This document shows, piece by piece, positions 11,581 through 52,422 of a DNA stretch of 64,000 nt (the first letter of the stretch is position 1; every line of letters starts with the position of its first letter). Both the position numbers and the translations under genes were made by a program. Source of the stretch: Candidatus Aegiribacteria sp. (GTDB taxonomy: Bacteria > Planctomycetota > Phycisphaerae > Sedimentisphaerales > Anaerobacaceae); assembly GCA_048635425.1 (NCBI GenBank), contig JAIVYN010000001.1:2532-66531 (forward strand), read 5' to 3'. The notes under the pieces are model-generated. The model did no database searches and was not told the origin of the DNA. It worked only from the letters and a program-made list of their open reading frames with translations.

Positions 11581-11608
11581 CAATACGATATACGCAATAC
11601 GCATCACG
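11581..11608. repeat. Heptamer tandem tract, ATACG family (4 units)
   Basis: CAATACG ATATACG CAATACG CATCACG, read directly. It lies between the nifS stop and the tRNA-Leu 3' end. Confidence 0.7.
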
Positions 11609-11614
11609 AATAAC

Positions 11615-11698
11615 TGCCGGAGGTGGGACTCGAACCCACACCCTGTTGCCAGGACGGGATTTTGAATCCCGCGCGTCTGCCAATTCCGCCACTCCGGC
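11615..11698 (-). tRNA. tRNA-Leu (anticodon CAA)
   Basis: Reverse complement: GCCGGAGTGGCGGAATTGGCAGACGCGCGGGATTCAAAATCCCGTCCTGGCAACAGGGTGTGGGTTCGAGTCCCACCTCCGGCA. It folds as a cloverleaf with a long variable arm and anticodon loop TTCAAAA. No encoded CCA. Confidence 0.9.
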
Positions 11699-11708
11699 CC
11701 TTCTAATT

Positions 11709-11778
11709 TACTATTTGCTATTTACTATTGAAGTGATGATGTTAAATAATAAATAGTCAATAGTCAATAGCCAATAAT
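11709..11778. repeat. Two inverted heptamer tracts (TACTATT x3 and AATAGTC/CAATAGT x5)
   Basis: 11709-11729 reads TACTATT TGCTATT TACTATT. 11744-11778 reads AAATAAT AAATAGT CAATAGT CAATAGC CAATAAT. The units are reverse complements, so the arms could form an imperfect hairpin. Confidence 0.7.
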
Positions 11779-11845
11779 TATAATGTCTTCCGGTGTGGCA
11801 GCAACATCTATGTGGGCGGATTCTACTGCTTTTGGTTGAAGGTTC

Positions 11846-12220
11846 CTATCCTTCCTTCCAGTACCGCTGCACAATACCGTCTTTTATCTCGAAGGAAACG
11901 CTGTGGTCTGTTTCCTTATCATCGACAATGATTATCGGAAACAGAACAAAGGCGTTGTCCTTTTTCATTATGCATCTGTACTTGAGGATCTCGGTCCCGT
12001 CTTCCGTCAAACGTTCTTCGGTGGGTTCACCAAGTGCCGCCACAAGCCAGTCCTTTGTCGTCTCGCCGCATTCGATCTGCCTGAGTGTCTGGTTTCCGAT
12101 AGGCCTATCTCTGCCGGTGTAGTGTTCGTCCGTCTTGCTGATAACACATCCGACAAGCAGAACTGACGTCACGGCCAGCAACGCAAAAAGAGCGATTTCG
12201 TTGTGCTTATACAGTTTCAT
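11846..12220 (-). CDS. Small lipoprotein, BamE/SmpA-OmlA-like (paralog 1)
   Basis: 124 aa. Signal peptide with lipobox LLVGC. LRQIECGETTKDWLVAALGEPT resembles the BamE-fold motif. AGGAGAAG sits upstream of the ATG. Confidence 0.55.
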   Translation of the reverse strand: MKLYKHNEIALFALLAVTSVLLVGCVISKTDEHYTGRDRPIGNQTLRQIECGETTKDWLVAALGEPTEERLTEDGTEILKYRCIMKKDNAFVLFPIIIVDDKETDHSVSFEIKDGIVQRYWKEG

Positions 12221-12320
12221 TTCTCACTTCTCCTAAATCAGCTCGCATTTAGCTCCTGCCACTTCGTTTATTTCGTATTTATTTCCCTAATCTCCCCATA
12301 TACTTATCTACGCACCCACT

Positions 12321-12351
12321 CATCAACATTCATCAATCATCAATAATCAAT
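12321..12351. repeat. Heptamer tandem tract, CATCAAT family
   Basis: CATCAAC att CATCAAT CATCAAT AATCAAT, between the two lipoprotein paralogs. Confidence 0.6.
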
Positions 12352-12359
12352 TAGAGTTG

Positions 12360-12728
12360 CTATCTTTCCTTCCAGTGCCGCTGCACAATACCGTCTTTGA
12401 GCTTAAACACAACGGTGTGTTCTATTTCCTTTGTATCTTCGATAGCGATGGGTGGCGGGAACATGGCAAATCTGTTGTCCTTTTTCTCTATGCATTTGTA
12501 CCTGAGGATCTCGCTCCCGTCTTCCGTCATACTTTCTTCGGTCGGCTCACCGACTATCGCCAAAAGCTGGTCTCTTGTCGTCCTGCCGGATTTTATCTGC
12601 CTTAGCTGCGAATTTTCAACGCCGCTGTAGTGCACATCACTTTGAGTGGCAACGCAGCCGGCAAGCAGAACCGACGTCACGCCCAGTGACACAAAAAGAG
12701 CAATTTCATTAAATTTATAATGTTTCAT
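12360..12728 (-). CDS. Small lipoprotein, BamE/SmpA-OmlA-like (paralog 2)
   Basis: 122 aa, lipobox LLAGC. It aligns along its whole length with 11846-12220 (roughly half the residues identical by eye). The RBS region is conserved (GATTTAGGAGAAG[TC]GAGAAATG). Confidence 0.55.
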   Translation of the reverse strand: MKHYKFNEIALFVSLGVTSVLLAGCVATQSDVHYSGVENSQLRQIKSGRTTRDQLLAIVGEPTEESMTEDGSEILRYKCIEKKDNRFAMFPPPIAIEDTKEIEHTVVFKLKDGIVQRHWKER

Positions 12729-13821: not shown

Positions 13822-13922
13822 TTTTCTGTCCCCTTAATTCTATAACTTTTTCTTGTACGAATCCCTCGTTGGTTTTCTGTTTATATAAGGACCGAGTTAA
13901 ATTCAGGGATATATCAAGAATA

Positions 13923-17551: not shown

Positions 17552-17632
17552 AAATACCTAATCGATCATCCTTAATCAATATTGATTTTGAAGATCCGCT
17601 CCGGGCGAAATCCGTTGTCTGGTCGGGGCAAT

Positions 17633-17660
17633 CAATAGTAAATCGTCAATAGTCAATTAT
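17633..17660. repeat. Heptamer tandem tract, CAATAGT family
   Basis: CAATAGT AAATCGT CAATAGT CAATTAT. It overlaps the last codons and stop of proB (...IIDY-stop). Confidence 0.6.
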
Positions 17661-18800
17661 GACGATATCTTCCGGGATTGCGACGACGTCTCTGTGGGCT
17701 GGGCCGAGGAGTTTTTTTATCTCGGTGCTGTGCTTGCCGGCTAAGGTCTTTAGTTGAGTGCTGCCGATGCTCGTTACGGCCTTGGCGTTATTATTTAGCA
17801 TAATAACCGCACCGGCCTCGAAAGAGCCTTTTACCGAGATTACGCCGCTGGGCAGGAGACTTTTGCGATTTTTGATTGCCTGCATAGCGCCCTCATCGAT
17901 AAATATTGTCCCGGCAGGGCTGCTGTTGAGAATCCATCTCGAACGATTTGAGAGCTTCCGTTTCGGCATAAAGACCGTGCCTATCTCTTCACCGGCGATA
18001 ATTCGGCCGATGATGTTTTTCACTCTGCCGTCCGCTAAAACTATACGAAAGCCGGCATTGGAGGCGATCTTTGCAGCTTCAATTTTGGTTTTCATTCCGC
18101 CGGTGCCGTGGGTGCTGCCCCTGCCTCCGGCGTTTCGAATAATATCGCCGGTTATCTCGAAGACGGCGTGTATAGGCCTGGCGTCAGTGAATTTTTGCGG
18201 GTCCTTATCGTAAAGGGCGTCGATGTCACTGAGCATAATCAAAAGGTCGGCGTCGATTTTACTGGCGACCAGGGCGCTTAGTCTATCGTTATCGCCGAAG
18301 GCTGAGCCGATTTCGTCAGTGCTTACACTGTCGTTCTCGTTCAGGATTGGCACCACGGACAATTTGAGCAGTGTCTCGATGGAATTGCGAAGGTTCAGAT
18401 AGGTCCTTCTGTTATTTAGCACCTCAGCGGTCAGCAAAACCTGGGCGACGGTAATACCGTAGCGGGCAAATGACTTTCTGTATTCAGCCATAAGTAACGG
18501 CTGTCCGATAGCAGCGCAGGCCTGTCGCATCTTTGTATTCTTTACACCGTTAGAAACCAGACGTCTGGCGTCTGTTCTGCCGGTGGTAGATTTACTAACT
18601 GGGCCGGGAATGTACAACTGGCCGGCCCCCATACCGATAGCACCGGAGCTGATAATAACGACCTGCCTGCCGGTTTTAAGAAGTGAATTTATCTGCCGGA
18701 CGATTCGGCGAACGTAGGCGGTATCTATCCTACTGTTTTTCGTCAGAATATTTGTGCCGATTTTTACAACTATTCGCTTTGCTTTACTAAAGTCCCGCAT
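17646..18800 (-). CDS. proB: Glutamate 5-kinase with PUA domain
   Basis: 384 aa. Amino-acid kinase fold (RIVVKIGTNILT, SSGAIGMG, FGDNDRLSA) plus a C-terminal PUA-like domain. It lies downstream of proA. Confidence 0.9.
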   Translation of the reverse strand: MRDFSKAKRIVVKIGTNILTKNSRIDTAYVRRIVRQINSLLKTGRQVVIISSGAIGMGAGQLYIPGPVSKSTTGRTDARRLVSNGVKNTKMRQACAAIGQPLLMAEYRKSFARYGITVAQVLLTAEVLNNRRTYLNLRNSIETLLKLSVVPILNENDSVSTDEIGSAFGDNDRLSALVASKIDADLLIMLSDIDALYDKDPQKFTDARPIHAVFEITGDIIRNAGGRGSTHGTGGMKTKIEAAKIASNAGFRIVLADGRVKNIIGRIIAGEEIGTVFMPKRKLSNRSRWILNSSPAGTIFIDEGAMQAIKNRKSLLPSGVISVKGSFEAGAVIMLNNNAKAVTSIGSTQLKTLAGKHSTEIKKLLGPAHRDVVAIPEDIVIIDY

Positions 18801-18803
18801 AAT

Positions 18804-18900
18804 TCGTCGCTCGTATCTCGTATGTCGTATGTTGTATTGCGTAAATCAGCGGTTAAACCACCGACTACATACCACTCACCACTCACTACTCACCACTCAC
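18804..18900. repeat. Two heptamer tracts filling the proA-proB spacer (TCGTATG family, then CACTCAC family)
   Basis: 18804-18845 reads TCGTCGC TCGTATC TCGTATG TCGTATG TTGTATT GCGTAAA. 18873-18900 reads CACTCAC CACTCAC TACTCAC CACTCAC. The second tract overlaps the final proA codons (IVSGE-stop). Confidence 0.7.
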
Positions 18901-20181
18901 AATTCTCTTGTGCGTGAATTTTTTTTTTGCATCGCTGCCAACATAATCAGCTACGACCTGGCCGGTGCCTACAAGTTTCCATTTATAAATGACAAGTCCT
19001 TCCAGCCCTACCGGCCCGCGGGCGTGTATCTTGTTGGTGCTTATGCCCACTTCAGCCCCAAGGCCGTAACGGAAGCCGTCGGCAAAGCGCGTGCTGCAGT
19101 TCCAGAGCACATTTGCAGAATCGACCAGGGCCATAAAGCTGTCGGCCTTTTCCTTATCAGCGGTAACAATGCTGTCAGTATGTCCTGACCCGTAATGGTT
19201 AATATGCTCAATCGCCTGTTCAAGGCCATCGACGATTTTTATCGAAAGGATATAATCCAGATACTCGGTTGACCAATCTTCTTCGACCGCCGGCTGTACA
19301 TCGATTATTGATACTGTTTTCTCGCAGCCGCGTAGCTGAACGCCTTTTTCCTCAAGAGCGGTTTTGACTTTCGGCAGGAACTTTTCAGCAATTTTATTAT
19401 CTACCAATAGCGTTTCCGCGGCATTACAGACAGCGACGTACTGGCACTTGGAATCGACGGTGATATTCACAGCCATATCCAAATCAGCATCGCTGTCTAT
19501 ATAAACGTGGCATATACCGTCAGCGTGCCCGAGGACGGGTATATTGGTATTGTCCATAATATAACGAACGAATTCATTTGACCCGCGGGGGATAACAAGG
19601 TCGATATATTCATCTAAGGCCAACATCTGGGCAACGTCCTGGCGGGTTTCCAATAGCTGAATCCATCCATTGGGTAGTCCGGCTTTTTCGCTCGCCTCGG
19701 AGATTGTCTCGGCTAAGATTCTATTGGTTTTTGCGGCTTCGCTTCCGCCTTTCAGCAGAACGGCATTTCCGCTTTTTAAGCAAAGCGTTGAGATTTGCAC
19801 AAGGGCGTCCGGCCGAGATTCAAAAACAACGCCGATAACGCCAATCGGACAACTGACTTTGTAAAGTTCGAGCCCCTTGTCGAGTTCGGTGGCGGTGATT
19901 GTTTTACCAACAGGGTCATCAATTTTGATAAGACTGTCGATGCCGGCACAAACATCAGCTATTTTACCTTCGTCAAACTTTAGCCGTTTGAGTAAAGGTC
20001 CAGCCAGGTTGTTCTTTTCAGCCGTGACCAGGTCCTCTTTGTTGGCTGAGACGATTTCAGCGCTGTGTTGCTTCAGGGCTTTGCCAATCTCGGCTAAAGC
20101 GTTGTTCTTTACATCGGTCCTGGCCACTGCCAGTTGGATCGAGGCTGACCCGGCTGCCGCGGCTATTTCGGAAATATTCAT
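18886..20181 (-). CDS. proA: Gamma-glutamyl phosphate reductase
   Basis: 431 aa of the aldehyde dehydrogenase superfamily. ProA-typical VIGVVFESRPDA, and CNAAETLLV with the catalytic Cys. Confidence 0.9.
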   Translation of the reverse strand: MNISEIAAAAGSASIQLAVARTDVKNNALAEIGKALKQHSAEIVSANKEDLVTAEKNNLAGPLLKRLKFDEGKIADVCAGIDSLIKIDDPVGKTITATELDKGLELYKVSCPIGVIGVVFESRPDALVQISTLCLKSGNAVLLKGGSEAAKTNRILAETISEASEKAGLPNGWIQLLETRQDVAQMLALDEYIDLVIPRGSNEFVRYIMDNTNIPVLGHADGICHVYIDSDADLDMAVNITVDSKCQYVAVCNAAETLLVDNKIAEKFLPKVKTALEEKGVQLRGCEKTVSIIDVQPAVEEDWSTEYLDYILSIKIVDGLEQAIEHINHYGSGHTDSIVTADKEKADSFMALVDSANVLWNCSTRFADGFRYGLGAEVGISTNKIHARGPVGLEGLVIYKWKLVGTGQVVADYVGSDAKKKFTHKRIVSGE

Positions 20182-20238
20182 TTTTAATTTACCATTGACT
20201 ATTTATCGTTAAATACCTATATTCGATTGCCGAATTGT

Positions 20239-20266
20239 AAATAATAAATAATCAATAATCAATATC
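20239..20266. repeat. Heptamer tandem tract, AATAATC family
   Basis: AAATAAT AAATAAT CAATAAT CAATATC, upstream of proA and next to tRNA-Gly. Confidence 0.6.
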
Positions 20267-20628: not shown

Positions 20629-20681
20629 TTGACAAAGTGGTAGGAAGTGGTACGATTTCCCACATTGAATATATCAAGTGG
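20629..20681 (+). promoter_or_regulatory. Candidate Pmra promoter with three AAGTGG boxes (MraZ-type operator)
   Basis: TTGACA 20629-20634 and TACGAT 20651-20656. AAGTGG occurs at 20635, 20645 (10-nt phasing) and 20676. An inverted TGTGGG lies at about 20657-20662. The mraZ ATG is at 20692. Confidence 0.5.
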
Positions 20682-20691
20682 GACTAATGCC

Positions 20692-21165
20692 ATGCTTTTA
20701 TTAACAGGCGAATATCTTCACGTTGTCGACAACAAAAGCAGAGTTCTCATCTCGAACAAGCTGAGAAATCAGATTGATGTCGATAAGCACGGCAGTAATT
20801 TCTATCTTATACTCGGGGCAAACGGCATACTTTGTTTATATCCCGAAAAGTATTTCGAGCAGATAGCCCTTGCGGTTACACCCGGTACTACCGCCCCTGA
20901 TGAGGCTGTAGCGTTCGAGCGAATCAGCTTTGCTTTGGCCAGTAAGGTGGAGCTGGACGGCCAGGGCCGATTGCTCCTGAATGAAAGATTGCGAAAGAGG
21001 GCGGGGTTGAAAGACCACATTACACTTATCGGCGTTAGAGACCATATCGAGCTGTGGAACAGTGAAAGCTGGGAACAATATCTTTCAGACCATATGGCTC
21101 AATATCAGAAACAGATGTCGCAGGCAAGGCAGGTTGTCCTGCACGAGCAGAGCGAAGATATTTAA
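20692..21165 (+). CDS. mraZ: Transcriptional regulator MraZ
   Basis: Start trimmed to the ATG at 20692 (MLLLTGEYLHVVDNKSRVLISNKLR...). Two SpoVT/AbrB-like halves each carry a D/G-x-x-x-R-type motif (DNKSRVLI, DGQGRLLL). It is followed by rsmH. Confidence 0.85.
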   Translation: MLLLTGEYLHVVDNKSRVLISNKLRNQIDVDKHGSNFYLILGANGILCLYPEKYFEQIALAVTPGTTAPDEAVAFERISFALASKVELDGQGRLLLNERLRKRAGLKDHITLIGVRDHIELWNSESWEQYLSDHMAQYQKQMSQARQVVLHEQSEDI

Positions 21166-21393: not shown

Positions 21394-21464
21394 CTTGTAA
21401 TGCGTTCCGCCTAATGCGGATCTTCAATGTTAGTGTTGAGTATCGCGCTCCCATTCATCGTGGC

Positions 21465-21520
21465 GCGATACGATATACGCGATGTAAAATACGATATACG
21501 ATATATGCGATACGATAGAA
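21465..21520. repeat. Heptamer tandem tract, GATATAC family (8 units) abutting the rsmH start
   Basis: GCGATAC GATATAC GCGATGT AAAATAC GATATAC GATATAT GCGATAC GATAGAA, then the GTG start at 21521. Confidence 0.75.
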
Positions 21521-22426
21521 GTGAATGGCTCGATAATAGAGCATATTCCGGTTCTCGCTGAGATATTGGCCGAGCAGATAAAACTGCCACCGGATGGCAT
21601 AATGGTCGATGCGACCATAGGACATGGAGGTCATAGTTATCTGTTCGGCAAGACCTTGGGCCCTGAGGGAGTTATCGTAGGCCTGGATGTCGATAAAAAT
21701 GCTATCCGAAGGGCCCAATTTATATTAAAGGACCTTGCCTGTAAGGTTATTTTGCTTCATTCGAATTTTTCTCTAATCAGCGAGCAGGTCCATGAGCAGG
21801 GTATAGATAAAGTTGATTTCATATTGGCGGATTTGGGGCTTTGTTCGGCACAGTTGGCTGACAGCCGGATGGGGCTCAGTTTTCTTCAAGATATGCCGCT
21901 GGATATGAGAATTGACAAAAGATTAAAGAGCACCGCTGCCGATATAGTTAATAAAGCAAATGAAAAGTCCTTAGCTGATTTGATATACAAATTCGGCCAG
22001 GACAGGGCCTCACGGCGAATTGCACGGTTTATCGTGCGGGAACGAGAAAGTGGGCTGATCACCACGACCGGCCAACTGGCAAAGATAGTCTGCAAGGCGC
22101 TGGGAAGGGCCCAGCGAAACCGAAAAAGTAAGATACACCCGGCAACCAGGACTTTCCAAGCGCTGAGAATTGCGGTCAATGACGAATTAGAGAATTTGAA
22201 GAAGCTGCTTGCTTCGGTGCCGGAGCTGTTGAGCAAAAATGGTTATATAGCAGTCATTAGCTATCACAGTCTGGAAGATAGATTGGTTAAAAACGATTTT
22301 AAGCGAAACGGAAAGGACAATATTTACAGGGTCATTACGAAAAAACCGATTGTGGCAACGCGAGAGGAAATTGCTGAAAATCGTCGGGCAAGAAGCGCAA
22401 AATTAAGGATTGCACAGAAACAATAA
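21521..22426 (+). CDS. rsmH: 16S rRNA (cytosine1402-N4)-methyltransferase
   Basis: 301 aa with DATIGHGGHS, DLGLCSAQL and SYHSLEDRLVK motifs. dcw position after mraZ. Confidence 0.9.
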   Translation: MNGSIIEHIPVLAEILAEQIKLPPDGIMVDATIGHGGHSYLFGKTLGPEGVIVGLDVDKNAIRRAQFILKDLACKVILLHSNFSLISEQVHEQGIDKVDFILADLGLCSAQLADSRMGLSFLQDMPLDMRIDKRLKSTAADIVNKANEKSLADLIYKFGQDRASRRIARFIVRERESGLITTTGQLAKIVCKALGRAQRNRKSKIHPATRTFQALRIAVNDELENLKKLLASVPELLSKNGYIAVISYHSLEDRLVKNDFKRNGKDNIYRVITKKPIVATREEIAENRRARSAKLRIAQKQ

Positions 22427-22440: not shown

Positions 22441-23295
22441 ATGACTTCCGATGCCAAGATTGGGTTGCTGTTAGGTTTGGTCTTTATATTTATAATTGCA
22501 TTTGTAATAAACGGCCTGCCGCGCTTTCGCAGTAACACAAACAATAATGAGCTGACAACTAATATGGTCAGCTCGCCAAACGACTCGATGGGTATTGCAG
22601 CCAAGGAACGTAAAGCTCAGGCGGTGTTCGATCTTGTAGAGCGGGTCCCACAAGAACGTGCTGATGAAGTGCCGGTCGTCTCAAAGAACGAGGGAGCGGT
22701 TCGCTTCAAAATGCCCTTTTCGCAAGGCACTTCGGCTGTGAAAGATGACTTGATTGTAGAGACTGCCAATGACAGGGTAAAGCCGCCGGCCCCGGTATCC
22801 CGAACCAATGAGAAAACCAGAGTCAATAAATCCAAGCCCGCTTTGCCAAAGACCTATGTAGTTAGCGAAGATGATAACCTGGCTATCATAGCGCGAAAAT
22901 TTTACGGCCCAGAGAAGGGTAATAAGAAAGTAAACGTTGCCCGGATATTCGAGGCCAATCGCAAATTGTTGAAATCACTCGATGAGATTTATGTCGGGCA
23001 AAAACTTACTATCCCGCCGCTTATAGATAAATCAGGCAGCGTATTTTCAGGGTCGCTGTTCGAGAAAGTGAAATCCATCAGCCGTAAACTTACTTCGTCT
23101 GATAAAACTAAGGCACCCAGGGAGACGCGGAGCAAACAATACGTTGTACGGGAAGGTGATAGTTTATGGCGAATTGCTGTTGAGCAGCTTGGAGATGGTA
23201 CTCGCTACAAGGAGTTAAATGAGCTAAATGCCGATATTTTAGGGAACGAAGACTATCTTGCTGTTGGGATGAGTTTGAGAATACCGGCTCGATAA
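22441..23295 (+). CDS. Membrane-anchored protein with two LysM domains
   Basis: N-terminal TM helix (IGLLLGLVFIFIIAFVI). Two LysM motifs (YVVSEDDNLAIIARKFYG...GQKLTIP and YVVREGDSLWRIAVEQLG...GMSLRIP). Confidence 0.75.
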   Translation: MTSDAKIGLLLGLVFIFIIAFVINGLPRFRSNTNNNELTTNMVSSPNDSMGIAAKERKAQAVFDLVERVPQERADEVPVVSKNEGAVRFKMPFSQGTSAVKDDLIVETANDRVKPPAPVSRTNEKTRVNKSKPALPKTYVVSEDDNLAIIARKFYGPEKGNKKVNVARIFEANRKLLKSLDEIYVGQKLTIPPLIDKSGSVFSGSLFEKVKSISRKLTSSDKTKAPRETRSKQYVVREGDSLWRIAVEQLGDGTRYKELNELNADILGNEDYLAVGMSLRIPAR

Positions 23296-23321: not shown

Positions 23322-23569
23322 CGAAGTACGAAACAAAATCAAGTGAACTAAAGTGCCTAAAGTGAACTAAAGTGAGCTAAAGTCAACGTGGTTATCAGGT
23401 TATCATGACATCAGGTAGTGGTTATCAGGTTACCAAGATATCAGGTTAACTTTTTTTTTCCTGGTATCCTGATTTCCTGATATCCTGCAACCTGATTTCC
23501 TGATATCCATATTTTAGGCACTTTAGGCACTCTAAACTTTAGTCACTTTGATCTTGTTTCGGATTTCGA
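23322..23569. repeat. Large imperfect palindrome built from 8-10-nt words (copy 1)
   Basis: Left arm: CTAAAGTGNN words, then GGTTATCAGG-like words. Centre: T9 at 23451-23459. Right arm: CCTGATWT words, then TTTAGGCAC words. The core 23348-23530 is homologous to the reverse complement of 30428-30625. Confidence 0.75.
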
Positions 23570-23864: not shown

Positions 23865-25607
23865 TTGAAAAGCGTTCGAATTACCATTCTTTTCTCTTTG
23901 CTTCTCATCGGCGTATTTCTGGCGCTGGCAGGGCGGTGCTTTTATCTGCAGTTTCTCAGGAACGACCATTATATTGGCAAGTGTCTCGAACAGCAGCAGG
24001 GGTGGGTGCCCTACAAGCCTCAGCGCGGCGTGATTCTTGATTGCCGCGGCAGAGTGCTCGCTGCGAGTAACAAGGTCCGAATTGTTAAAGTTGAGCCTCG
24101 AAGGGTCAAAGACCCCAAAGATTTATCGAGTGAGCTCCAGCCGATATTGGGTATGGGTGCGCACGAAATCTGTAAACTTATCAACGAAAGCAACAACCCG
24201 GGATATGTAAAAATCAAGGCGGATGCCAAGCCGGGTGAATGTGATGCCGCCCGCAGAATTTCAAGCGCCGTCGGCGTCGAATCTGATTGGCAACGACATT
24301 ATCCAATGGGTCGATTAGCCGTGCACGCTGTTGGTTTTACGAGTCTTGATAATCGGGGGTTAGACGGCATTGAGTACCAATACGACAAACAGCTCAGCGG
24401 TTCGGCGGCACAGGATATATTCTTTGCAGACGTGCGTCGCCGGCCCATTCGCCCGGCGCCTCTTGAGCATAGTCCGGCGGATAATAACGATGTGGAGAAC
24501 GCCGTTTTAACCGATGGCGTCGGGATTATTTTGACCATTGATGCTACTATCCAGCAGTTTGCCAGAGATGAGCTTATAAAGCAATACGAAAACTACGAGG
24601 CCGAGTCGGCTGTGGCGATTGTGGTTGAGCCAAAGACCGGGGCAATTTTGGCGATGGTTTCGCTGCCTGATTTCGACCCTGCCCAGGCCCGTTCGAGTGA
24701 CCCTGATAATCGCCGTAACCGGATTTTAACCGATGAGTTCGAGCCGGGCAGTATTATAAAGCCGCTCGTGGCCGCGATTGCCCTTGATGCAGGCGCTGTG
24801 AACAAGGTTGAAAAAATATTCTGCGAAAACGGGAACTATTCCGGCAGAGGTTTTGGGCGAATCGGAGAATATGAAAGAGGCTTCGGCGATTTGACTTTGC
24901 GGGAGATTCTGGTTGAGTCCAGCAATATAGGAATGGCAAAAATCGGACAGAGGCTCGGCAAAGACAAACTTTATAAAGGGCTGAGACTTTTCGGTTTCGG
25001 CAAAAAAGCAGGGATTGACGTCCCCGGCGAGGCTGATGGGCTGTTGCGAGGCACGCACAAGTGGACGGGATACAGCGTAACCCGGATACCTTTTGGTCAG
25101 GAAATTACTGTAACTGCGATTCAATTGGTTCGGTCTTTCTGCATACTTGCCAATCGCGGTCGTATCGTTCGCCCGTTTATGGTCAGAGCGATTGTTGACA
25201 ACGACGGAGAGATTACCGAGCTAAAACGGCCTCTGCCGCCGGTGGGTTACGTAGTAAAGCCGGAAGTCGCCGAATGGATTGTCAGCGAGGCTATGGTCGG
25301 TGTGGTTAATGAGGGAACTGGCAAAAGAGCCAAGCTGGAGAGATGGCAGGTCTTCGGGAAAACGGGAACAGCCAACATTGCAAAAAGCGATGAACGAGGT
25401 TATTCGGACAGTGATTATGTGGTTTCCTTTATAGCCGGTGCGCCGGCGGAGGACCCGGCCATAGTGGTTTTGGTTTCCGTCCGCAAGCCGAACAAGAAGC
25501 TCGGCAAAGGCTATACCGGCGGAGTTGTGGCCTCTCCGGTGGCGGGGAAAATAATCGAAAAAACACTCAACTACCTCGAAACCCGATTTGCCCGGGCGAA
25601 CTTCTGA
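23865..25607 (+). CDS. ftsI: Class B penicillin-binding protein (FtsI/PBP3-like transpeptidase)
   Basis: 580 aa with a TTG start 3 nt after the ftsL stop. N-terminal TM helix. S-x-x-K (GSIIKP), S-x-N (SSN) and KTG (GKTGTA) motifs. Confidence 0.85.
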   Translation: MKSVRITILFSLLLIGVFLALAGRCFYLQFLRNDHYIGKCLEQQQGWVPYKPQRGVILDCRGRVLAASNKVRIVKVEPRRVKDPKDLSSELQPILGMGAHEICKLINESNNPGYVKIKADAKPGECDAARRISSAVGVESDWQRHYPMGRLAVHAVGFTSLDNRGLDGIEYQYDKQLSGSAAQDIFFADVRRRPIRPAPLEHSPADNNDVENAVLTDGVGIILTIDATIQQFARDELIKQYENYEAESAVAIVVEPKTGAILAMVSLPDFDPAQARSSDPDNRRNRILTDEFEPGSIIKPLVAAIALDAGAVNKVEKIFCENGNYSGRGFGRIGEYERGFGDLTLREILVESSNIGMAKIGQRLGKDKLYKGLRLFGFGKKAGIDVPGEADGLLRGTHKWTGYSVTRIPFGQEITVTAIQLVRSFCILANRGRIVRPFMVRAIVDNDGEITELKRPLPPVGYVVKPEVAEWIVSEAMVGVVNEGTGKRAKLERWQVFGKTGTANIAKSDERGYSDSDYVVSFIAGAPAEDPAIVVLVSVRKPNKKLGKGYTGGVVASPVAGKIIEKTLNYLETRFARANF

Positions 25608-25689
25608 GAAGGGTGACTAAAATAAATGGTATTTTGTACAGAGCATTATCAATTACTATTTACCAATATCCAAATTTGAATAAGAGGAA

Positions 25690-26116: not shown

Positions 26117-26134
26117 CCTTGCCTCAAGTTTTCT

Positions 26135-31416: not shown

Positions 31417-31419
31417 TAT

Positions 31420-38862: not shown

Positions 38863-39489
38863 TCACGGGCTTTGTGGCTTTATTACCTTTTGTTCTTTGA
38901 ATACTTTGCCGGAGAGGTAATCGGTGAAGGTTACCTTCACTGTCAAGGGCTCGTCGAAACTTTTGACCTTGTCGGCTATACCGAATGTCAATCTGTAATT
39001 GATGGTTACCAGCGCGGCAAACCAGAGTTTTTTCAACTCGCCTGGTTCTACGTGCCACTGGCCGAGCAGGGCCTGGTTCGCCTCTGACGAATCCAGGTCC
39101 CAAAGCTGGACGTCCACGGCGCCTGTGGCCTTTATTATATCACCCTCTTCATCGATGGGCTGTATATAGACAATCAGCTTTTCCTTTGTGCCGTCATCGT
39201 CTTTATCGAAGAATCCGGTATATTTGCCAATCTCGATTTTTTCAAGGCGATAGACATTTTCACCCTTGACTTCCTCGGGTAAGCCGGAGAGGACGTGCAT
39301 TTGTTTTGTTAATTGTTTGTTTTCGGCCCTGGTCTGTTCGAGCTGGTTCTCTAACTGCTTGTTTTGCTCCGTCAAGTTTCCGATTTGCTCAACTAACGGT
39401 GTTCTTATGCTGTTTGCGTTTTCACAGCCGGCGACAACGCACAGACAGAAGATGAAAGACAGAAGACAGAAAAATCTGACTTCTGACAT
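38863..39489 (-). CDS. Lipoprotein with coiled-coil segment (unknown function)
   Basis: Start set at the ATG 39489-39487, giving MSEVRFFCLLSFIFCLCVVAGCEN (lipobox VVAGC). The upstream in-frame extension in the ORF track is a translation of the heptamer tract. Confidence 0.55.
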   Translation of the reverse strand: MSEVRFFCLLSFIFCLCVVAGCENANSIRTPLVEQIGNLTEQNKQLENQLEQTRAENKQLTKQMHVLSGLPEEVKGENVYRLEKIEIGKYTGFFDKDDDGTKEKLIVYIQPIDEEGDIIKATGAVDVQLWDLDSSEANQALLGQWHVEPGELKKLWFAALVTINYRLTFGIADKVKSFDEPLTVKVTFTDYLSGKVFKEQKVIKPQSP

Positions 39490-39550
39490 CTGACTTCTGA
39501 TTTCTGACTTCTGACATCTGACATCTGACTTCTGACATCTGACTTCTGAT
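39474..39550. repeat. Heptamer tandem tract WTCTGAC x11
   Basis: ATCTGAC TTCTGAC ATCTGAC TTCTGAT TTCTGAC TTCTGAC ATCTGAC ATCTGAC TTCTGAC ATCTGAC TTCTGAT. A related AAGACAG-type periodicity continues over 39441-39473, inside the signal-peptide codons. Confidence 0.9.
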
Positions 39551-39572
39551 AATTCGATATCCGTATCCATTA

Positions 39573-40208
39573 TTACTGCTCCTCTTTCTCCTGGTTCCTG
39601 ACTATTTCGGGAGCTTTTTGCAATATTCTGTCGGCCAATCCATACTCGATTGCTTCGGCTGCATCCAGCCAGAGGTCTCTGTCGCAATCCTTTTCAACTT
39701 TCTCGACCGTTTGGCCTGTATGTTTGGCCAATATATCATAAAGCCGGGCCCGCAGCCTCAATATTTCCTGGGCTTCGATATCCAGGTCCGTAGCCGGTCC
39801 AATCAATTGTCCTGTGATTAAGGGCTGGTGCAGAAGAATCCTGTTGTTTGCCAGCAGGAAGCGCTTGTCAGCCTTACCGCCGGCCAATAACAACGCTGCC
39901 ATACTTGCTGCCTGCCCGATACAATACGTCGCAACATCGCAGCGCAGAAACTGCATCGTGTCATACACTGCGAAGCCTGCTGTGATTGAGCCGCCGGGCG
40001 AATTGATGTAAAAATGGACATCGTTCTTGTTGTCTTCGTTGCTCAAAAACAGCATCTGGGCAATGATTAAATTGGCTGATGTATCCTCAATTGGTCCACC
40101 GAGAAAAACTATCCTGTCCTTCAGCAGTCTTGAATAAATATCATACGCACGTTCGGTTCGACCACTTTTCTCAATTACTATCGGCACCAAAGTTTGATTT
40201 ACGTTCAT
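39573..40208 (-). CDS. clpP: ATP-dependent Clp protease proteolytic subunit (second copy)
   Basis: 211 aa. The Ser-His-Asp context is intact ([23 protein letters not shown]). Confidence 0.9.
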
Positions 40209-40236
40209 TTTGGTTATTCCTTGTTTGTTTAAGGAT

Positions 40237-40288
40237 GGTGAGTAGTTAATTGGTGAGTGGTTAATTGACTACTCACCACTCACTACAC
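40237..40288. repeat. Inverted GGTGAGT / ACTCACC word repeats between the two clpP genes
   Basis: GGTGAGTAG (40237-40245) pairs perfectly with CTACTCACC (40270-40278). A further GGTGAGTGG / CCACTCAC pair follows. Same word family as 18873-18900. Confidence 0.6.
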
Positions 40289-40980
40289 TATTTACTGTCT
40301 TTTTTCTTTTTGTTGTTCTTCTTTTCCTTTTCTTTTTCTTCTTTTTTATCTTTGTCTTTATCTTTGTCTTCTTCCTGCAGCACCTCGTCGATAAGGCCGT
40401 ATTGTTGGGCCTCCTCGGCAGTCATATATCTGTCTCTTTCGGTTTCAGAGGCGATTTTTTCGACCGACTGGCCGGTGTGTCTTGCAAGAATTTCGTTTAT
40501 CATAGCTTTGGCTTTGAGGATTTCTTCGGCCTGGATTTTGATGTCGGACGCCTGGCCGCTAACACCACCCCAGGGTTGGTGCAGCATAACTTTGGCGTGT
40601 GGCAGGGCGTACCTTTTGCCTTTTGAGCCGGCTGACAGTATCACCGCGGCACCGGACTGGGCCCTGCCGATGCAGTAGGTCGCTACAGGAGAGCTGACGA
40701 AGCGTATCGTATCATAAATGGCCATCGTATCGTCAACGCTGCCGCCCGGGGAATTGATATACAGGCTGATTTCGTTGCTGCGCTTGAGATTGTCCAGATA
40801 TAGCATCTTCATAATGACCTCAGCGGCCCTTTCATACGATATCGCTCCTATCAGAAAAACAATCCGGTTCTCCAGCAGCATATCGTCCAGACTCATCTGG
40901 CGGTAGCGCTGGTACTGGCCGTATTGATTGTACGGCTCTATATTTCTCGCAATGTTTATTGCACGATGTTCAATAGACAT
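40288..40980 (-). CDS. clpP: ATP-dependent Clp protease proteolytic subunit (first copy) with K/E/D-rich tail
   Basis: 230 aa with GRAQSGAAV (Ser aligned), VMLHQP and RDRYMTAEEA. C-terminal tail QEEDKDKDKDKKEEKEKEKKNNKKKKDSK. Confidence 0.85.
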   Translation of the reverse strand: MSIEHRAINIARNIEPYNQYGQYQRYRQMSLDDMLLENRIVFLIGAISYERAAEVIMKMLYLDNLKRSNEISLYINSPGGSVDDTMAIYDTIRFVSSPVATYCIGRAQSGAAVILSAGSKGKRYALPHAKVMLHQPWGGVSGQASDIKIQAEEILKAKAMINEILARHTGQSVEKIASETERDRYMTAEEAQQYGLIDEVLQEEDKDKDKDKKEEKEKEKKNNKKKKDSK

Positions 40981-41126: not shown

Positions 41127-42716
41127 CTAACTGCTTTTTTTGGTTTTTTTGGGTTTTTTCTCAGCCCCGGCCGGCTTCTCAGAGGTTTTTTTCGCCGATT
41201 TCTTAGCGGGTTTCCGGGCTTTTTTGGCTTTCTTTTCGGGCTTTTTTTCCGTTATTTTTGCCGTCTCGAGTAATTTAGAGATGCAGTTATTCTGACGTAC
41301 CTCTAACTTGAACTGAGCTAACGAGCCATCGCGTTCCATTTGCTCTCTCATTCTTTCGGGCCTTTGGCCCCGCTGAAGGGCTATCTGGGCGATATGCCCG
41401 TTAATCTCTTCTTCGCTGACATCAATCTCGAGCTTATCAGCAACTTTGTCCATAATAAAGAATGTTTTTAGCTGTTCCCGGGCCTGCTCTTCACTGCCGG
41501 CCTGAAGCTGTTCTATATGCTCTTCGAGCTGCTCGCGGGGCAATCCACGCATCATCAAATTCGTATATTGCCTTTGCAGCAGTGTCTTTGCCTGCTCGGC
41601 GACTATATCTAACGGAAGCTCGAAATCGGTGTTTTCGAGCAGATACTGGTGAATTTGCTCGCTCATTTCGGTTCGAACCTGTGTCTCTAATCGGCTCTGC
41701 AGCGTGTCCTGGGTTTTTTCCCGCAGCTCGTTTTCATCTTCGATACCAAGTCTCATGAGGAAGTTTTCGTCTAACTCGGCGGGCTTGAGCCATTTGATAT
41801 CTTTGATGTCGATTTGGATATCCACCTTTTTGCCGCGATATTCTTCCCTGAAATATGTCTTTGGGACTTCGACGCTTATCTGTTTGGTCTGGCCGGCCTC
41901 GGCACCGGCCAGTTGTTCGTCGAGCTTCTCAACCGGGACTTCCCCGATAAAACCATTTTGCCTTACGTATATCTCGATGTTGTCGAGTTTCTGTTCTTCT
42001 TCGATGCCCTCGGCTTTGAGAACCACATCCGCAATTATCTGGTCCTCAGGCTCAACAGCTCCATCCTTACGCGGTGTCCATATACCTGACCATCTTTGTA
42101 ATCGCTCGATCTCTCTATCGATTTGCTCGTCCGTAACTTCCAGTTTTGTCCTTGTTACCGGGATACCTTCGAGCTGCGGCAGGTCAAAGTCGGGACGCAC
42201 TTCGACCTCAAAATCAAGCTTCATCGGGCCTTTGGCCGGCAGCTCGATATTTTCAAAATCAATGTCCGGCTCGCCTATTATCTGCAGCTCGTTGTCCTTG
42301 ACCGCTGAATCGCTGGCGTCAATCAGCAGTTTCAATTTGATTTGCTCTGTTGTCTCCTTGCCGAATCTTTTTTCCAGAAGTCGGCGGGGCGCTCGACCCT
42401 TTCTAAAACCCGGCACCAGAGCTTCTTTGCGCAGCTCTTTGTATTTTTCATTAGTGGCGTTGTTAATTGTTTCTTCGGGTATCTCTATGGAGACCTTTTT
42501 TTTGCAGGGGCCCGCCTCTTCGATTGTTACTATGTTTTTCGACATAGCGGATTCTTCTTCCTCTTTCTTAGGTTGCTCTTCATCCGGGGAAGCGGCTTGT
42601 TCCTGCTCTTTTGTTTCTGCTGTTTTTTCTTCTTCTTTCGGTGCCGTGGATTGTTCTTCGGCTCGCTCCTGGGCTTTGTCCGCAGTCTGTTCTGCCGTTT
42701 GTTCTTCTTCGACCAT
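41127..42716 (-). CDS. tig: Trigger factor with acidic N-terminal and Lys-rich C-terminal extensions
   Basis: 529 aa with the ribosome-binding signature GFRKGRAP. It lies upstream of clpP. The first ~60 aa are E/Q/K-rich. The last ~45 aa are K-rich (EKKPEKKAKKARKPAKKSAKK...). Confidence 0.85.
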   Translation of the reverse strand: MVEEEQTAEQTADKAQERAEEQSTAPKEEEKTAETKEQEQAASPDEEQPKKEEEESAMSKNIVTIEEAGPCKKKVSIEIPEETINNATNEKYKELRKEALVPGFRKGRAPRRLLEKRFGKETTEQIKLKLLIDASDSAVKDNELQIIGEPDIDFENIELPAKGPMKLDFEVEVRPDFDLPQLEGIPVTRTKLEVTDEQIDREIERLQRWSGIWTPRKDGAVEPEDQIIADVVLKAEGIEEEQKLDNIEIYVRQNGFIGEVPVEKLDEQLAGAEAGQTKQISVEVPKTYFREEYRGKKVDIQIDIKDIKWLKPAELDENFLMRLGIEDENELREKTQDTLQSRLETQVRTEMSEQIHQYLLENTDFELPLDIVAEQAKTLLQRQYTNLMMRGLPREQLEEHIEQLQAGSEEQAREQLKTFFIMDKVADKLEIDVSEEEINGHIAQIALQRGQRPERMREQMERDGSLAQFKLEVRQNNCISKLLETAKITEKKPEKKAKKARKPAKKSAKKTSEKPAGAEKKPKKTKKSS

Positions 42717-43108: not shown

Positions 43109-43356
43109 ATATTCGTATCTCGTCGCTCGTATTTGGAGATACAGTCTAATAATTATAAGGGCTCTTATCGGCTATGCAAGGGGTTTTTTACAAAATTTTT
43201 GGTGTTTGTACCGGCGGGATCGTTGCTAACTGATGATAATCACATGCTAAAAAGCTTGGGATATTTCCTGTCTTGCCTTATACGAAACAGTCTTCTAAAA
43301 ATCTAAAAAATGAGGTTTTTTGGAAAAGATTAGATTGCGGTTGTTTTTTACAGATA

Positions 43357-50416: not shown

Positions 50417-50463
50417 TGATTCCGCTGTCGGTAGGACGGCCTAAAGTTTTTCGGCTTGTCTGG

Positions 50464-50500
50464 AAATAAAAAGCCGAGCAAGTTTTGTTTGCTTGCTCGG
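50464..50500 (-). terminator. Rho-independent terminator of rpsU
   Basis: 9-bp stem CCGAGCAAG / CTTGCTCGG (50474-50482 and 50492-50500), followed on the minus strand by CTTTTTATTT. Confidence 0.6.
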
Positions 50501-50539
50501 ATTGAATGCGACTAAAAAAGTCTTTCGCGAAAGGAATTT

Positions 50540-50722
50540 TTATGGGGGGTGGTTTATAGTTCGCTGGGCTTTACGCATACGTCGGCGATTTTTTTCTGAG
50601 GGCTTTTCGTAATAGGCCATTCTCTTCATGTCTCTGATTAAACCCTCTTTTTCACACAGCTTCTTGAAGCGTCTGATCATTTGTTGGACTGATTCGCCTG
50701 CCCGCGATTTAACTTTCAGCAT
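50540..50722 (-). CDS. rpsU: 30S ribosomal protein S21
   Basis: 60-aa basic protein. MLKVKSRAGESVQQMIRRFKKLCEKEGLIRDMKR..YYEKPSEK is the bS21 pattern. Confidence 0.9.
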   Translation of the reverse strand: MLKVKSRAGESVQQMIRRFKKLCEKEGLIRDMKRMAYYEKPSEKNRRRMRKAQRTINHPP

Positions 50723-51026
50723 AAAAAAACAAACCTTCCTGTGCTTCTTATATCAGAAGCAATCACAAAACCACAATATACTTAATTCGTCAAAAATTGT
50801 TCGTTTCATTACTCTAAACCAGATTTTGTATTTTTTCAAGTCAAAAAATGCTCACTGATAGTTTTTGTATAAAATGGCCTTTTCGCCCGATAAAATCCCA
50901 GTATTCTCCCCAAAAATCTGTAATTTTACCAAATTTTCAGGATTTCTTGAGAAATATGGGCAAATATGTTAAAATAAAGGGTCAATTACCTGCCTCCGCA
51001 GGCACAGGTTTGGAGGTATATTGTAG

Positions 51027-52340
51027 TTGGAGAAATTGCGTCAGACTCTGAGAGTCAGAAAAGAACGGGCGATTCTGGTCGCCGCTGTCCTCCGCGTCCC
51101 CGATGGGCCGGACGATTTGGCTGAGCTTACAGCCTTAGCTGAAAGTGCCGGCGCCGTTGTTGTGGACAGATTCCAGCAGAAAATCCGCAAGATAAATCCC
51201 GCCACATACATAGGCAAGGGCAAAGCCGACCAGCTTGCCGGCAGAGTCAGGCGATTCAAGGCCGACGTTGTGATATTTGATAATGACCTTTCCCCGGGCC
51301 AAATTCGCGAACTTGAAGAGATTGTCAAAATCAAGGTCCTCGACCGCAGCGAACTGATTTTGGACATATTCGCCACCAGGGCAAAGACCAGACAGGCCAA
51401 ACTGCAGGTCGAGTTGGCCCAGTTGGAATATACATATCCCCGGTTGGCCCGTATGTGGTCGCACTTGGATAGCGTAGCGGGGGCAGGCGGGGGAACCGCT
51501 GCCGGCGCGGTCGGTGGTATCGGCACCAGAGGCCCGGGCGAACAGCAGTTGGAAATCGACCGGCGATTAGTCAGCAAAAGAATCACCGAGCTGAAACGCG
51601 AGCTTGTAAATATTGACAAGCGCAGGATTCGCGAGATTAACGCTCGAAAGGGATTGTTCAAAATCTGTCTCGTTGGTTATACCAATGCGGGCAAAAGCAC
51701 GCTCCTGAACACACTTACAGATGCGGGGGTCCTTGTCGAGGACAGGCTCTTTGCAACACTGGACACGCGAACAAGAAAATGGACGCCGGCCAGAGGCGCC
51801 GATGTGGTGGTCAGCGATACAATTGGTTTTGTGAAAAATTTACCGCATCAATTGGTCGCCTCGTTTAAGGCAACGCTCGAAGAGGCCGTCAATGCGGATT
51901 TGCTCCTGCATATCATAGATGTAGCCAATTCCGATACGCTAAAGCAAATCGAATCTGTAAATAACGTTCTCAAAGAGATTGGCTGCGGCCAAAAACCGAT
52001 TTTGGAAGTGTTTAACAAAGTCGATATTGTCAGAAAAATCGGCGACCTTGAGATGCTCCAAACGCTCTATCCCGATGCGGTATGTATATCAGCCAAAACC
52101 GGCTACGGCCTGGAGAAATTAAATGAAGCAGTCGCTGCAAGGTACAAAGGCACTGAGCTTCTGCTTCGGGTCGCCAGCAGCCAATCGAACGGCAAGGTCC
52201 AGAGTTTCCTGCGGGCGCACGGCCAAATTCTAAACGAGCAATACCAGGACAGCTCTGTTCTGATTGACGCCAAGCTCGGCCGAAACCAGCTCCCCGACCT
52301 AAAACGCCTGCACCCTGAAGCCATCGATATAATTGATTAA
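51027..52340 (+). CDS. hflX: GTPase HflX
   Basis: 437 aa with a TTG start. HflX N-domain, then G1 GYTNAGKST, G3 DTIGF and G4 NKVD. Confidence 0.9.
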   Translation: MEKLRQTLRVRKERAILVAAVLRVPDGPDDLAELTALAESAGAVVVDRFQQKIRKINPATYIGKGKADQLAGRVRRFKADVVIFDNDLSPGQIRELEEIVKIKVLDRSELILDIFATRAKTRQAKLQVELAQLEYTYPRLARMWSHLDSVAGAGGGTAAGAVGGIGTRGPGEQQLEIDRRLVSKRITELKRELVNIDKRRIREINARKGLFKICLVGYTNAGKSTLLNTLTDAGVLVEDRLFATLDTRTRKWTPARGADVVVSDTIGFVKNLPHQLVASFKATLEEAVNADLLLHIIDVANSDTLKQIESVNNVLKEIGCGQKPILEVFNKVDIVRKIGDLEMLQTLYPDAVCISAKTGYGLEKLNEAVAARYKGTELLLRVASSQSNGKVQSFLRAHGQILNEQYQDSSVLIDAKLGRNQLPDLKRLHPEAIDIID

Positions 52341-52422
52341 TGACGATTGATTATTGATTATCGATAAGTTCGTGACCCGTCGCTCGTATTTAGTGATGCG
52401 TATTGAGTATATCGTATTGCGT
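52332..52422. repeat. Heptamer-periodic tract (13 units: ATTGATT family grading into NNNTCGT/GCGT family)
   Basis: ATTGATT AATGACG ATTGATT ATTGATT ATCGATA AGTTCGT GACCCGT CGCTCGT ATTTAGT GATGCGT ATTGAGT ATATCGT ATTGCGT. It overlaps the hflX stop. Confidence 0.8.

Follow-up and report, generated by a model that had tools for sequence, protein, structure and literature searches.

Heptanucleotides are the commonest class among long simple sequence repeats (SSRs) of many bacteria, according to the survey of Mrazek et al. 2007 as it is represented in the excerpts of PMC4679880 and PMC4692102 used here; these excerpts also carry the survey's proposal that a length of 7 nt corresponds to the stretch of DNA which the polymerase holds, and a slippage origin proposed for long SSRs. 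In the same excerpts, the heptamers of other phyla (GGGAATC, GGGGAYT/STRR and TAACTGA) are described from orthologous spacers, with variation in length and sequence and with inverted pairs; they abut starts without a Shine-Dalgarno (SD) motif, overlap stops, provide stops in all three frames and are occasionally translated. In the present study, we analysed tracts of tandem 7-nt words in 64,000 nt of contig JAIVYN010000001.1 (hereafter the window) and compared them with 952 kb in 66 loci of GTDB species representatives from the Sedimentisphaerales/Phycisphaerae; loci from other genomes carry L-numbers (L001, L002 and so on). The heptanucleotide tracts are real, dispersed tandem arrays of a few word families, and they are a lineage-wide property of Sedimentisphaerales/Phycisphaerae genomes.

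Tandem Repeats Finder (TRF), a match/mismatch scan and direct reading agree on 7-nt tandem tracts in a few word families, which had been proposed in a first reading of the letters alone (the sequence-only reading). TRF gave about 17 period-7 arrays in the window, at or adjoining the positions given in that reading. The scan yielded 7 strong period-7 tracts, against 0 to 3 for each other period from 4 to 15 and against none across 20 dinucleotide-preserving shuffles of the window. Head-to-tail 7-nt units, in excess over composition and over other periods, were directly observed, as expected for the long-SSR class. The period had been called strict, which is too strong a word, as the units are imperfect (72-95% matches). 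The 14 tracts first listed total 622 bases, about 5% of the non-coding DNA of the window, and 11 of them are mostly non-coding, although coding sequence and tRNAs take up 83% of the window (P = 6e-7). The same words return in several tracts: when all rotations and both strands are allowed, 14 of the 91 possible pairs of tracts are at most one mismatch apart, whereas heptamers drawn at random from non-coding DNA give 2.4 +/- 1.7, and the observed level was reached in 0 of 2000 random trials. By direct reading, the ATACG/CGTAT family was seen at 11581, 18804, 21465, 31420, 43110 and 52374, and the ATTGA/CAATAG family at 11706-11778, 12321, 17633, 20239 and 52332. No Rfam family matched any window tract. 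An assembly artefact was excluded, the same tracts being present at orthologous sites of independent assemblies.

The MreC homologues and the 66 loci place the window among metagenome-assembled genomes of uncultured Phycisphaerae/Sedimentisphaerales; the earlier guess of a genome of the Planctomycetes-Verrucomicrobia-Chlamydiae (PVC) type was therefore right, the host being a planctomycete. In the nearest relative, MreC is 96% identical; among the relatives, synteny is kept at 84-95% nucleotide identity. The period-7 excess over shuffles in the window was accompanied by an excess in the 952 kb of relatives, where we counted 93 period-7 tracts, 0 to 8 tracts for other periods from 4 to 13, and 17 for the harmonic 14. 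At least one tract was present in 36 of the 66 related loci, the tract-bearing genomes including some with only 36-50% MreC identity and ranging in GC from 0.43 to 0.63. Tracts were absent from three Planctomycetaceae loci (a sample of 46 kb). The vocabulary recurring across genomes comprises AATACGC, AAGTCAG/AAGACAG/ACAGAGG, AATAATC/AATAGTC, AAAATCG, AATCGGC, ACTCGAT and AAACTTC.

The tracts of the window are as follows, from TRF and direct reading unless a line says otherwise.

11579-11608, plus strand: (CAATACG), about 4 units, between the aminotransferase stop and the 3' end of the convergent tRNA-Leu
11706-11778, minus strand: inverted pair upstream of tRNA-Leu, in sense (CTATTGA)n...(ATAGTAA)n
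12321-12351, minus strand: (ATTGATK), about 4 units, beginning 8 nt past the stop of open reading frame (ORF) 12360-12728
17632-17660, minus strand: (TTGACTA), about 4 units, beginning at the proB stop TAA (17646-17648)
18804-18845, minus strand: (NNATACG), about 6 units, proB leader
18871-18900, minus strand: (GTGAGTG)4.3, including the proA stop TAG in a variant unit GTGAGTA
20238-20266, minus strand: (ATTGATT/ATTTATT), about 4 units, upstream of proA
21464-21520, plus strand: (ATACGAT), about 8 units, rsmH leader
31417-31493, minus strand: whole mreB-mreC spacer, 77 nt or 11 x 7 (direct reading)
39443-39549, minus strand: (TCAGAWG), about 11 units, then (TTCTGTC), about 4 units, inside ORF 38863-39570
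40236-40288, minus strand: hairpin between two clpP genes, made of GTGAGTG/GTGAGTA words and their complements (TRF, folding)
43110-43130, minus strand: (ATACGAG), about 3 units, immediately 5' of tRNA-Gly(gcc) (direct reading)
52332-52422, plus strand: two tracts after hflX, (TTGATTA), about 5 units from the TAA stop, then (CGTATTG)-type units

The genes beside them were identified by Pfam on the window ORFs, and the window also holds four tRNAs.

10401-11558, plus strand: class-V aminotransferase gene
17646-18800, minus strand: proB
18886-20181, minus strand: proA
20647-21165, plus strand: mraZ
21521-22426, plus strand: rsmH
22441-23295, plus strand: LysM protein gene
23865-25607, plus strand: penicillin-binding protein (PBP) gene, FtsI-like
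27665-29806, minus strand: PBP2
29868-30350, minus strand: mreD
30622-31416, minus strand: mreC
31494-32549, minus strand: mreB
35292-37016, minus strand: Lnt
37013-37960, minus strand: DNA methylase
38084-38545, minus strand: HEPN-domain protein
39573-40208 and 40288-40980, minus strand: two clpP genes
41127-42716, minus strand: trigger factor
51027-52340, plus strand: hflX

Nearly all placements that had been read from the letters were confirmed. In proA, proB, hflX and mreB, the first unit of a tract includes or adjoins the stop codon; tracts stand beside tRNA-Leu and tRNA-Gly(gcc), and the mreB-mreC spacer, described as 11 units, is exactly 77 nt long. The rsmH leader tract (21465-21520) ends exactly at GTG 21521, which is the sole possible in-frame rsmH start. 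The proB start codon is inside the last tract unit, AATTATG, with no SD-like motif seen upstream of it. Among the tract-abutted starts (proB, rsmH and mreC), 0 of 3 have an SD-like motif against 54% of window genes, which is not a significant difference. The (CGTATTG)-type units after hflX are the ATACG family in antisense orientation. On the minus strand, the proB leader (18801-18830) and the 5' leader of tRNA-Gly(gcc) (43109-43135) have ATACGAGCGACGA in common, followed by AT(T)ATGCGGG, so that the tract and the first bases after it form nearly the same context for a protein gene and a tRNA gene.

The words themselves are sorted by position. Stop-bearing words (TTGAYTA, GTGAGTG), which place a stop in each frame within 21 nt, are located at or after stop codons, and stop-free words (AATACGC, TCAGAAG) before starts or in coding DNA; the ATTGATK tract at 12321-12351 stops all three frames because its word includes TGA. 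Tracts at most 8 nt from an upstream stop are in modest excess (13 against 6.3 +/- 2.2 expected). There is no preference for co-directional spacers, since in the related loci the co-directional, divergent and convergent spacers carry 41, 8 and 6 tracts against 74, 14 and 12% of spacer bases. The claim that placement is not random went too far: the mostly non-coding location and the modest stop-adjacent excess stand, and across spacer types the tracts are proportional to non-coding DNA. Two ATTGAYT tracts match TTGAYT-17-TAxxAT: the one upstream of proA (20238-20266) holds TTGATT-17-TACAAT in a hairpin-prone leader (folding z = -2.4), and the one upstream of tRNA-Leu holds TTGACT-17-TAACAT (11767->11739). 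Promoter-like matches in the window as a whole were not above shuffles (21 against 14.7 +/- 4), and the ATTGAYT tracts as promoter -35 elements are a lead only. The window also contains two pairs of tandem paralogous ORFs, 11846-12220/12360-12728 and 55664-56560/56784-57683, in which the 21 nt before the start are identical (the latter pair) or differ by one base (the former); Pfam gave no match for the former pair, and a heptamer tract lies between its two members.

Many of the tracts are paired. For 48 of 136 tracts, a partner that matches the reverse complement at 12/14 positions or more lies no further than 90 nt away, against 7 of 136 when each was paired with the flanks of another tract, and by this measure of nearby inverted partners about one third of the tracts look like hairpin arms. 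The sense layout (W)n - loop - (reverse complement of W')n occurs upstream of tRNA-Leu and of proA and in the clpP-to-lipoprotein, clpP2-to-clpP1 and mreB-to-mreC spacers. The pair upstream of tRNA-Leu (11706-11778) folds as an imperfect hairpin with a z of -3.25. Of the CACTCAC/GGTGAGT family named in the sequence-only reading, the member at 18871-18900 is indeed a (GTGAGTG)n array; the other, at 40237-40288, is a hairpin and not a period-7 tandem array (TRF period 15, z = -4.4 for 40236-40288). Imperfect palindromes in operon spacers, as in REP/BIME elements, were found for a subset of tracts only.

The mreB-mreC spacer, for which we compared 42 genome spacers and 53 distinct metagenome spacers, is the clearest case. 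In the commonest architecture, a 5' arm stands just past the mreB stop (TGA-TTCGTCGTGCGTAATGCGTATT) and the 3' arm is a long array (AATACGCAATACG...ACGATTATG) reaching the mreC start; in the window, TGCGTCG-like units run from the mreB stop and (AATACGM), about 6 units, runs up to the mreC ATG. At least six different arm sequences occupy this orthologous spacer. The arms are swapped wholesale between subclades (TCGTGG/CCACGA, GTGCACAAG/CTTGTGC, AAAAGCTAAAA/TTTTAGCTTTT) and are still complementary, as are the further pairs TAGCGCACAGCAGC/CGCTGCACGCTGA and GGTAAGTGGTAATTG/CAATCACCATTTAACC. Comparison of orthologous spacers, a check already suggested in the sequence-only reading, confirmed that tracts recur and revealed the replacement of the arms. 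That reading had missed the inverted pairing of about one third of the tracts. The mean folding z was -1.3 to -1.4, with z < -1.64 in 31-36% of the spacers. The first 25 nt pair with the last 25 nt in 79% of mreB-mreC spacers against 50% of tract-free control spacers, and folding z is lower than in the controls (Mann-Whitney P = 0.009). In one subfamily, a stem of 11 pairs is nearly invariant: 10 cells changed on one side are still paired through G-U, about 7 are broken and 2 pairs are changed on both sides. For the same subfamily, folding of the sense strand is much better than that of the antisense strand, and this favours RNA over DNA. These results give moderate rather than strong support to a hairpin architecture that has been kept in dozens of species even as the sequence of its arms was exchanged. 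In L003 (9760-10001), L004 (9840-10001) and L010 (9900-10001), an extra insert of 30-160 nt lies between the heptamer arms of this spacer and has its own GC-rich hairpin (CCGCTTCTGTCCGG.../CCCGCACCAAT...).

The tracts are not confined to non-coding DNA. It had been argued that a 7-nt period is incompatible with coding, and this did not survive the comparison: three units make 21 nt, or seven codons, so that period 7 fits coding, and in-frame copies were observed directly in PBP2, Lnt and a DNA methylase of relatives, deep in intact ORFs and as insertions relative to the window orthologues. The words and the peptides they encode are listed below.

PBP2, in three variable loops: (AATACGC)n, encoding NTQYAIR
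PBP2: (AAAATCG)n, encoding KIENRKS
PBP2: (TCAAAAT)n, encoding SKFKIQN
PBP2: (GCATCGA)n, encoding RASSIEH
PBP2: (GGCAATC)n, encoding GNRQSAI
Lnt: (CACGCTT)n, encoding DASRFTLHASR
Lnt: (CTTCAAA)n, encoding LQTSNFKLQT
DNA methylase, 17-aa insertion: (CGATTGC)n and (AAATCGC)n, encoding ADWRLPIADCRLPIENRKSQIANRKS

One PBP2 loop holds different words in different species. By place, at least 32 of the 136 tracts are deep in ORFs, a count inflated by the fact that every related locus holds the same few genes; 62 are clearly intergenic, and 40, at most 150 nt from a called start, are ambiguous between leader and N-terminus because ORF extension absorbs stop-free tracts. A protein search with (NTQYAIR)6 gave 21 matches, all of them short ORFs resembling mis-called intergenic tracts, which suggests that long AATACGC arrays are rare in real proteins.

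The longest tract of the window, (TCTGACW)10.7 at 39475-39549, is most likely translated as the start of a lipoprotein signal peptide, judging from its reading frame. A conserved ATG (MDTDIELSEV...) lies four nucleotides past the clpP stop, and the frame from this ATG through (TCAGAWG)n and (TTCTGTC)n to the lipobox Cys is open and in phase in six genomes, two of which have no alternative internal start. The first array would encode a charged n-region with heptapeptide SEVRCQK repeats, and the inverted array a hydrophobic h-region core, FFCLLSFIFCL, of a signal peptide that ends in the lipobox VVAGC. The length from the ATG to the lipobox Cys varies as follows.

Window: 49 aa
L001: 42 aa
L002: 46 aa
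L010: 46 aa
L007: 36 aa
L009: 36 aa

In the same region, a TTC-rich tract of period 3/6 (40298-40374, TRF) is coding on the minus strand and forms the Lys/Glu/Asp-rich C-terminal tail of the upstream ClpP paralogue (...EEDKDKDKDKKEEKEKEKKNNKKKKDSK).

Length differences in whole units were directly observed. The rsmH leader tract has 7- and 14-nt indels between relatives, and in the lipoprotein N-terminus the difference in length between the window and L001 is exactly 21 nt (7 aa). The lengths of the mreB-mreC spacers are not quantised, with 12 of 53 metagenome spacers being multiples of 7 (P = 0.14, not significant). In an unrelated Caldilineaceae contig, which was recovered from several samples, (AGACGGC)n has 22 units in one sample and 23 in another, with identical flanks. 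The matches of (NTQYAIR)6 led to two other phyla and not to the Sedimentisphaerales lineage. In Caldilineaceae (Chloroflexota), we saw (TATTGCG)3...(TACGCAA)9 upstream of an aldehyde dehydrogenase start and an inverted pair (AGTGAAC)3/(GTTCACT)3 (L070 7703-7862 and 9363-9521; L071 1300-1362 and 11596-11761). An unrelated genome, ERZ26051029 contig_3 (ENA, 1.87 Mb; its HflX is 35% identical to that of the window), has perfect (CAATACG)7-10 arrays (L067 8744-12722, L068 10001-10079, L069 7235-10079). The arrays belong to tandem lipoprotein paralogues, in which they follow the ATG (MKLL) and precede the hydrophobic core and the lipobox; every copy that was read is out of frame, a classical phase-variation layout.

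We consider it probable, with a fair margin of doubt, that the tracts are slippage-prone heptanucleotide SSRs whose inverted partners arise through hairpin-templated switching, that they are filtered by selection and that a subset has been co-opted as RNA hairpins. We infer strand slippage as the generator, by which arrays would be born and resized in 7-nt steps; inverted partner arrays would probably come from hairpin-templated strand switching, comparable to quasipalindrome correction. Selection would then set the sites of survival. Arrays would be free to persist in spacers, leaders, trailers and tRNA flanks, stop-bearing words (TTGAYTA, GTGAGTG) surviving only at or after stop codons and stop-free words (AATACGC, TCAGAAG) up to starts; in coding DNA, steps of 21 nt would be accepted within tolerant protein segments such as signal peptides and surface loops. 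Some arrays may serve as RNA hairpins in operon spacers, the mreB-mreC hairpin most likely setting how stable, or how well translated, the flanking cistrons are relative to each other, by analogy with REP in malE-malF.

Several points weigh against this explanation. Several spacers of the window, including mreB-mreC (z = -0.3 to -0.6), have folding z near 0; the dinucleotide-shuffle z test has little power here because the shuffles retain self-complementary CG-rich words. RNAalifold gave no consensus structure for 27 mreB-mreC spacers of all subfamilies, and only the subfamily alignment worked because the repeats misalign. Long ATACG arrays are oriented 14:1 in sense, a figure inflated by orthology, and this bias may reflect strand-specific selection or function. 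No same-species contig was found; the closest sequence to the window is 94-96% identical. Slippage alone accounts neither for the return of the same few words at unrelated sites nor for a unit of 7 nt, two questions equally unsolved for the STRR, GGGAATC and TAACTGA repeats, and the different words in one PBP2 loop require frequent independent births or word replacement.

The tracts could instead act in cis, as RNA or single-stranded DNA, by binding an oligomeric protein whose register is 7 nt and which controls translation initiation or termination at the adjoining codons; candidates would be ribosomal protein S1, a protein with a cold-shock domain or a HutP-like ring reading NAG-N4-NAG. This is unlikely in our estimation, with some real points in its favour: a few word families are reused at many sites, tracts abut the proB, rsmH and mreC starts without an SD-like motif, the stop-adjacent excess (13 against 6.3 expected) and the sense-strand bias of ATACG tracts would follow, and the tract that precedes tRNA-Leu has, in sense, the sequence UAG-N4-UAG-N4-UAG, which is the HutP recognition pattern. 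The same idea has been put forward for the TAACTGA repeats (PMC4679880). However, a single binder is hard to reconcile with at least five unrelated word families in addition to many more across the clade, with one spacer that carries both orientations in different species, or with the same words in frame in protein loops, where such regulation is unexpected; the 0 of 3 SD motifs against a 54% baseline is not significant, co-directional spacers are not preferred and no candidate protein was identified. A further reading, in which the arrays are more than the debris of slippage and a dedicated sequence-specific system (a templated-synthesis enzyme or a 7-nt-register binder) writes or maintains a small heptamer vocabulary that the lineage uses as an evolvable toolkit, appears improbable. 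If it were true, the arrays would act as register-shifting stop-start hairpins tuning the cistron ratios of mreBCD and proAB, as promoter -35 arrays and as coding modules, the last because the seven circular codons of a word would be all hydrophilic (loops) or all hydrophobic (signal-peptide cores).

Identical words at unrelated sites would also be accounted for if the tracts, especially the inverted pairs, were small non-autonomous mobile elements (REP/BIME- or MITE-like) spread by a transposase or by recombination, and so would in-frame gene insertions, as with Rickettsia palindromic elements. The CAGAAG/CTGTCT pair does occur at non-orthologous sites (following clpP and some other genes, and preceding Lnt and PBP2), some genes have in-frame insertions that their orthologues lack, and a clearly copy-pasted hairpin of about 220 nt has two copies in the window and others elsewhere in relatives. 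The heptamer tracts themselves have no conserved termini or fixed length, vary continuously in copy number and contain degenerate units; target-site duplications were not seen, no RAYT/transposase gene is linked in the window by Pfam, and orthologous sites retain a tract while its word changes, unlike the insertion of a fixed element. We find mobility quite improbable. It is highly unlikely, finally, that the tracts are contingency loci whose copy-number changes switch or tune the adjacent genes (phase variation). Repeats of 7 bp with phase variation are known from the Haemophilus hmw genes, and non-triplet SSRs are present within the 5' coding portion of the lipoprotein ORF 38863-39570 and in promoter-like regions; the out-of-frame (CAATACG)7-10 arrays in lipoprotein paralogues of the unrelated 1.87-Mb genome are of this kind. 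A heptamer SSR switch depending on RNA processing is documented in the excerpt of PMC12721329 used here. Against such switching, the tracts of the lipoprotein orthologues differ in length and yet 6 of 6 stay in frame between the MDTDIE start and the lipobox, which indicates selection for the ON state of the gene; the genes next to tracts mostly have housekeeping roles (proAB, rsmH, mreBC, hflX, clpP, tRNAs) and are not surface antigens, and the hosts are free-living sediment organisms.

The preference for 7 nt in bacteria that gather longer simple repeats, and the reuse of few words per lineage, form a puzzle that goes back to the first work on STRR and to the survey of 2007. The present clade gives a deep comparative series, with dozens of species, orthologous spacers and protein loops, in which arrays persist while words are replaced, hairpin arms co-vary and copies enter essential proteins in frame. 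Slippage against templated writing, function at the RNA level and the de novo origin of signal peptides and loops are thereby made testable. In practical terms, gene callers will mis-set starts and call spurious short ORFs over such tracts, as the short 'hypothetical proteins' from the (NTQYAIR)6 search suggest.

The window holds a second repeat element, the giant hairpin of about 220 nt, at 23341-23549 (plus strand) with an inverted copy at 30428-30630. Its arms are tandem arrays of period 10 (AAAGTGMNCT) and period 8 (GGTTATCA), with folding z of -10 and -5, and no matching Rfam family was found. Both copies are sense-oriented in operon spacers, between the LysM gene and the ftsI-like PBP gene and between mreC and mreD. 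L004 and L015 have related copies after mreC; in L002, the spacer between clpP2 and clpP1 is filled by a related array of period 10. In addition, about 2.1 kb at 25608-27692 are missing from the closest relative, L001, where the alignment jumps from 27693 to 25607; this segment, between the FtsI-like PBP gene and PBP2, contains ORF 26135-27664 (509 aa), with weak zinc-ribbon and DUF6056 matches.

Among known systems, the REP/BIME elements of enterobacteria are intercistronic imperfect hairpins that can protect upstream mRNA; Rickettsia palindromic elements insert in frame into essential genes. Both have a fixed consensus and length and are spread by dedicated transposition. The present tracts resemble REP/BIME in forming imperfect hairpins in operon spacers and differ in being variable arrays without fixed ends; the arms differ completely between species, and no transposase domain was found in the scanned window ORFs.

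The nearest described analogues are indeed the STRR and the heptanucleotide long SSRs, as had been suspected. With the latter (Mrazek, Guo & Shah 2007, as represented in the excerpts used), the tracts share the 7-nt unit as the commonest one, the mostly non-coding location, the length changes in unit steps and a proposed slippage origin; they differ in belonging to a new lineage, Phycisphaerae/Sedimentisphaerales, with several coexisting A/T-rich word families and with many arrays paired as hairpin arms. The STRR (CCCCAGT, TTGGTCA, CAACAGT) and the Nostoc GGGGAYT repeats are likewise dispersed arrays of few words between co-transcribed genes, some in inverted pairs, but their hosts are cyanobacteria (heterocystous ones for STRR), another phylum than the present host, and the window words have no G-quadruplex potential because, unlike STRR/GGGGAYT, they are not G-rich. 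TAACTGA, found in Beggiatoaceae of marine origin and in some Cyanobacteria and Bacteroidetes (MacGregor 2015, PMC4679880), lies a few nucleotides 5' of SD-less starts and overlaps upstream stops, a placement that the present tracts may share; likewise, its forward words stop all three frames and its reverse copies occasionally give heptapeptide repeats; there one word is used, and here many, in arrays of up to 11 units, one third with an inverted partner. The Xanthomonas GGGAATC repeats are similar in their orthologous spacers, their variation in length and sequence between close species and some inverted pairs, and differ as a single G-quadruplex-forming family, for which the excerpt of PMC4692102 reports no coding copies.

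Tandem CCCCAGT/TTGGTCA/CAACAGT, GGGGAYT, GGGAATC and TAACTGA were not found in the window and the 66 loci (about 1 Mb), and full-text literature searches returned no report of such repeats in Planctomycetes, Phycisphaerae or Sedimentisphaerales. The supposed novelty therefore holds for the lineage and its words; the general phenomenon has been described in other phyla, according to the excerpts of PMC4679880 and PMC4692102. As the same kind of repeat is already on record in cyanobacteria, Xanthomonas and sulfur bacteria, we are dealing with a new lineage and new word families, and not with a new kind of element. What is unusually clear here is the presence of hairpin arms with sequence turnover, of in-frame copies in essential enzymes and of a signal peptide that would be built from an inverted pair.

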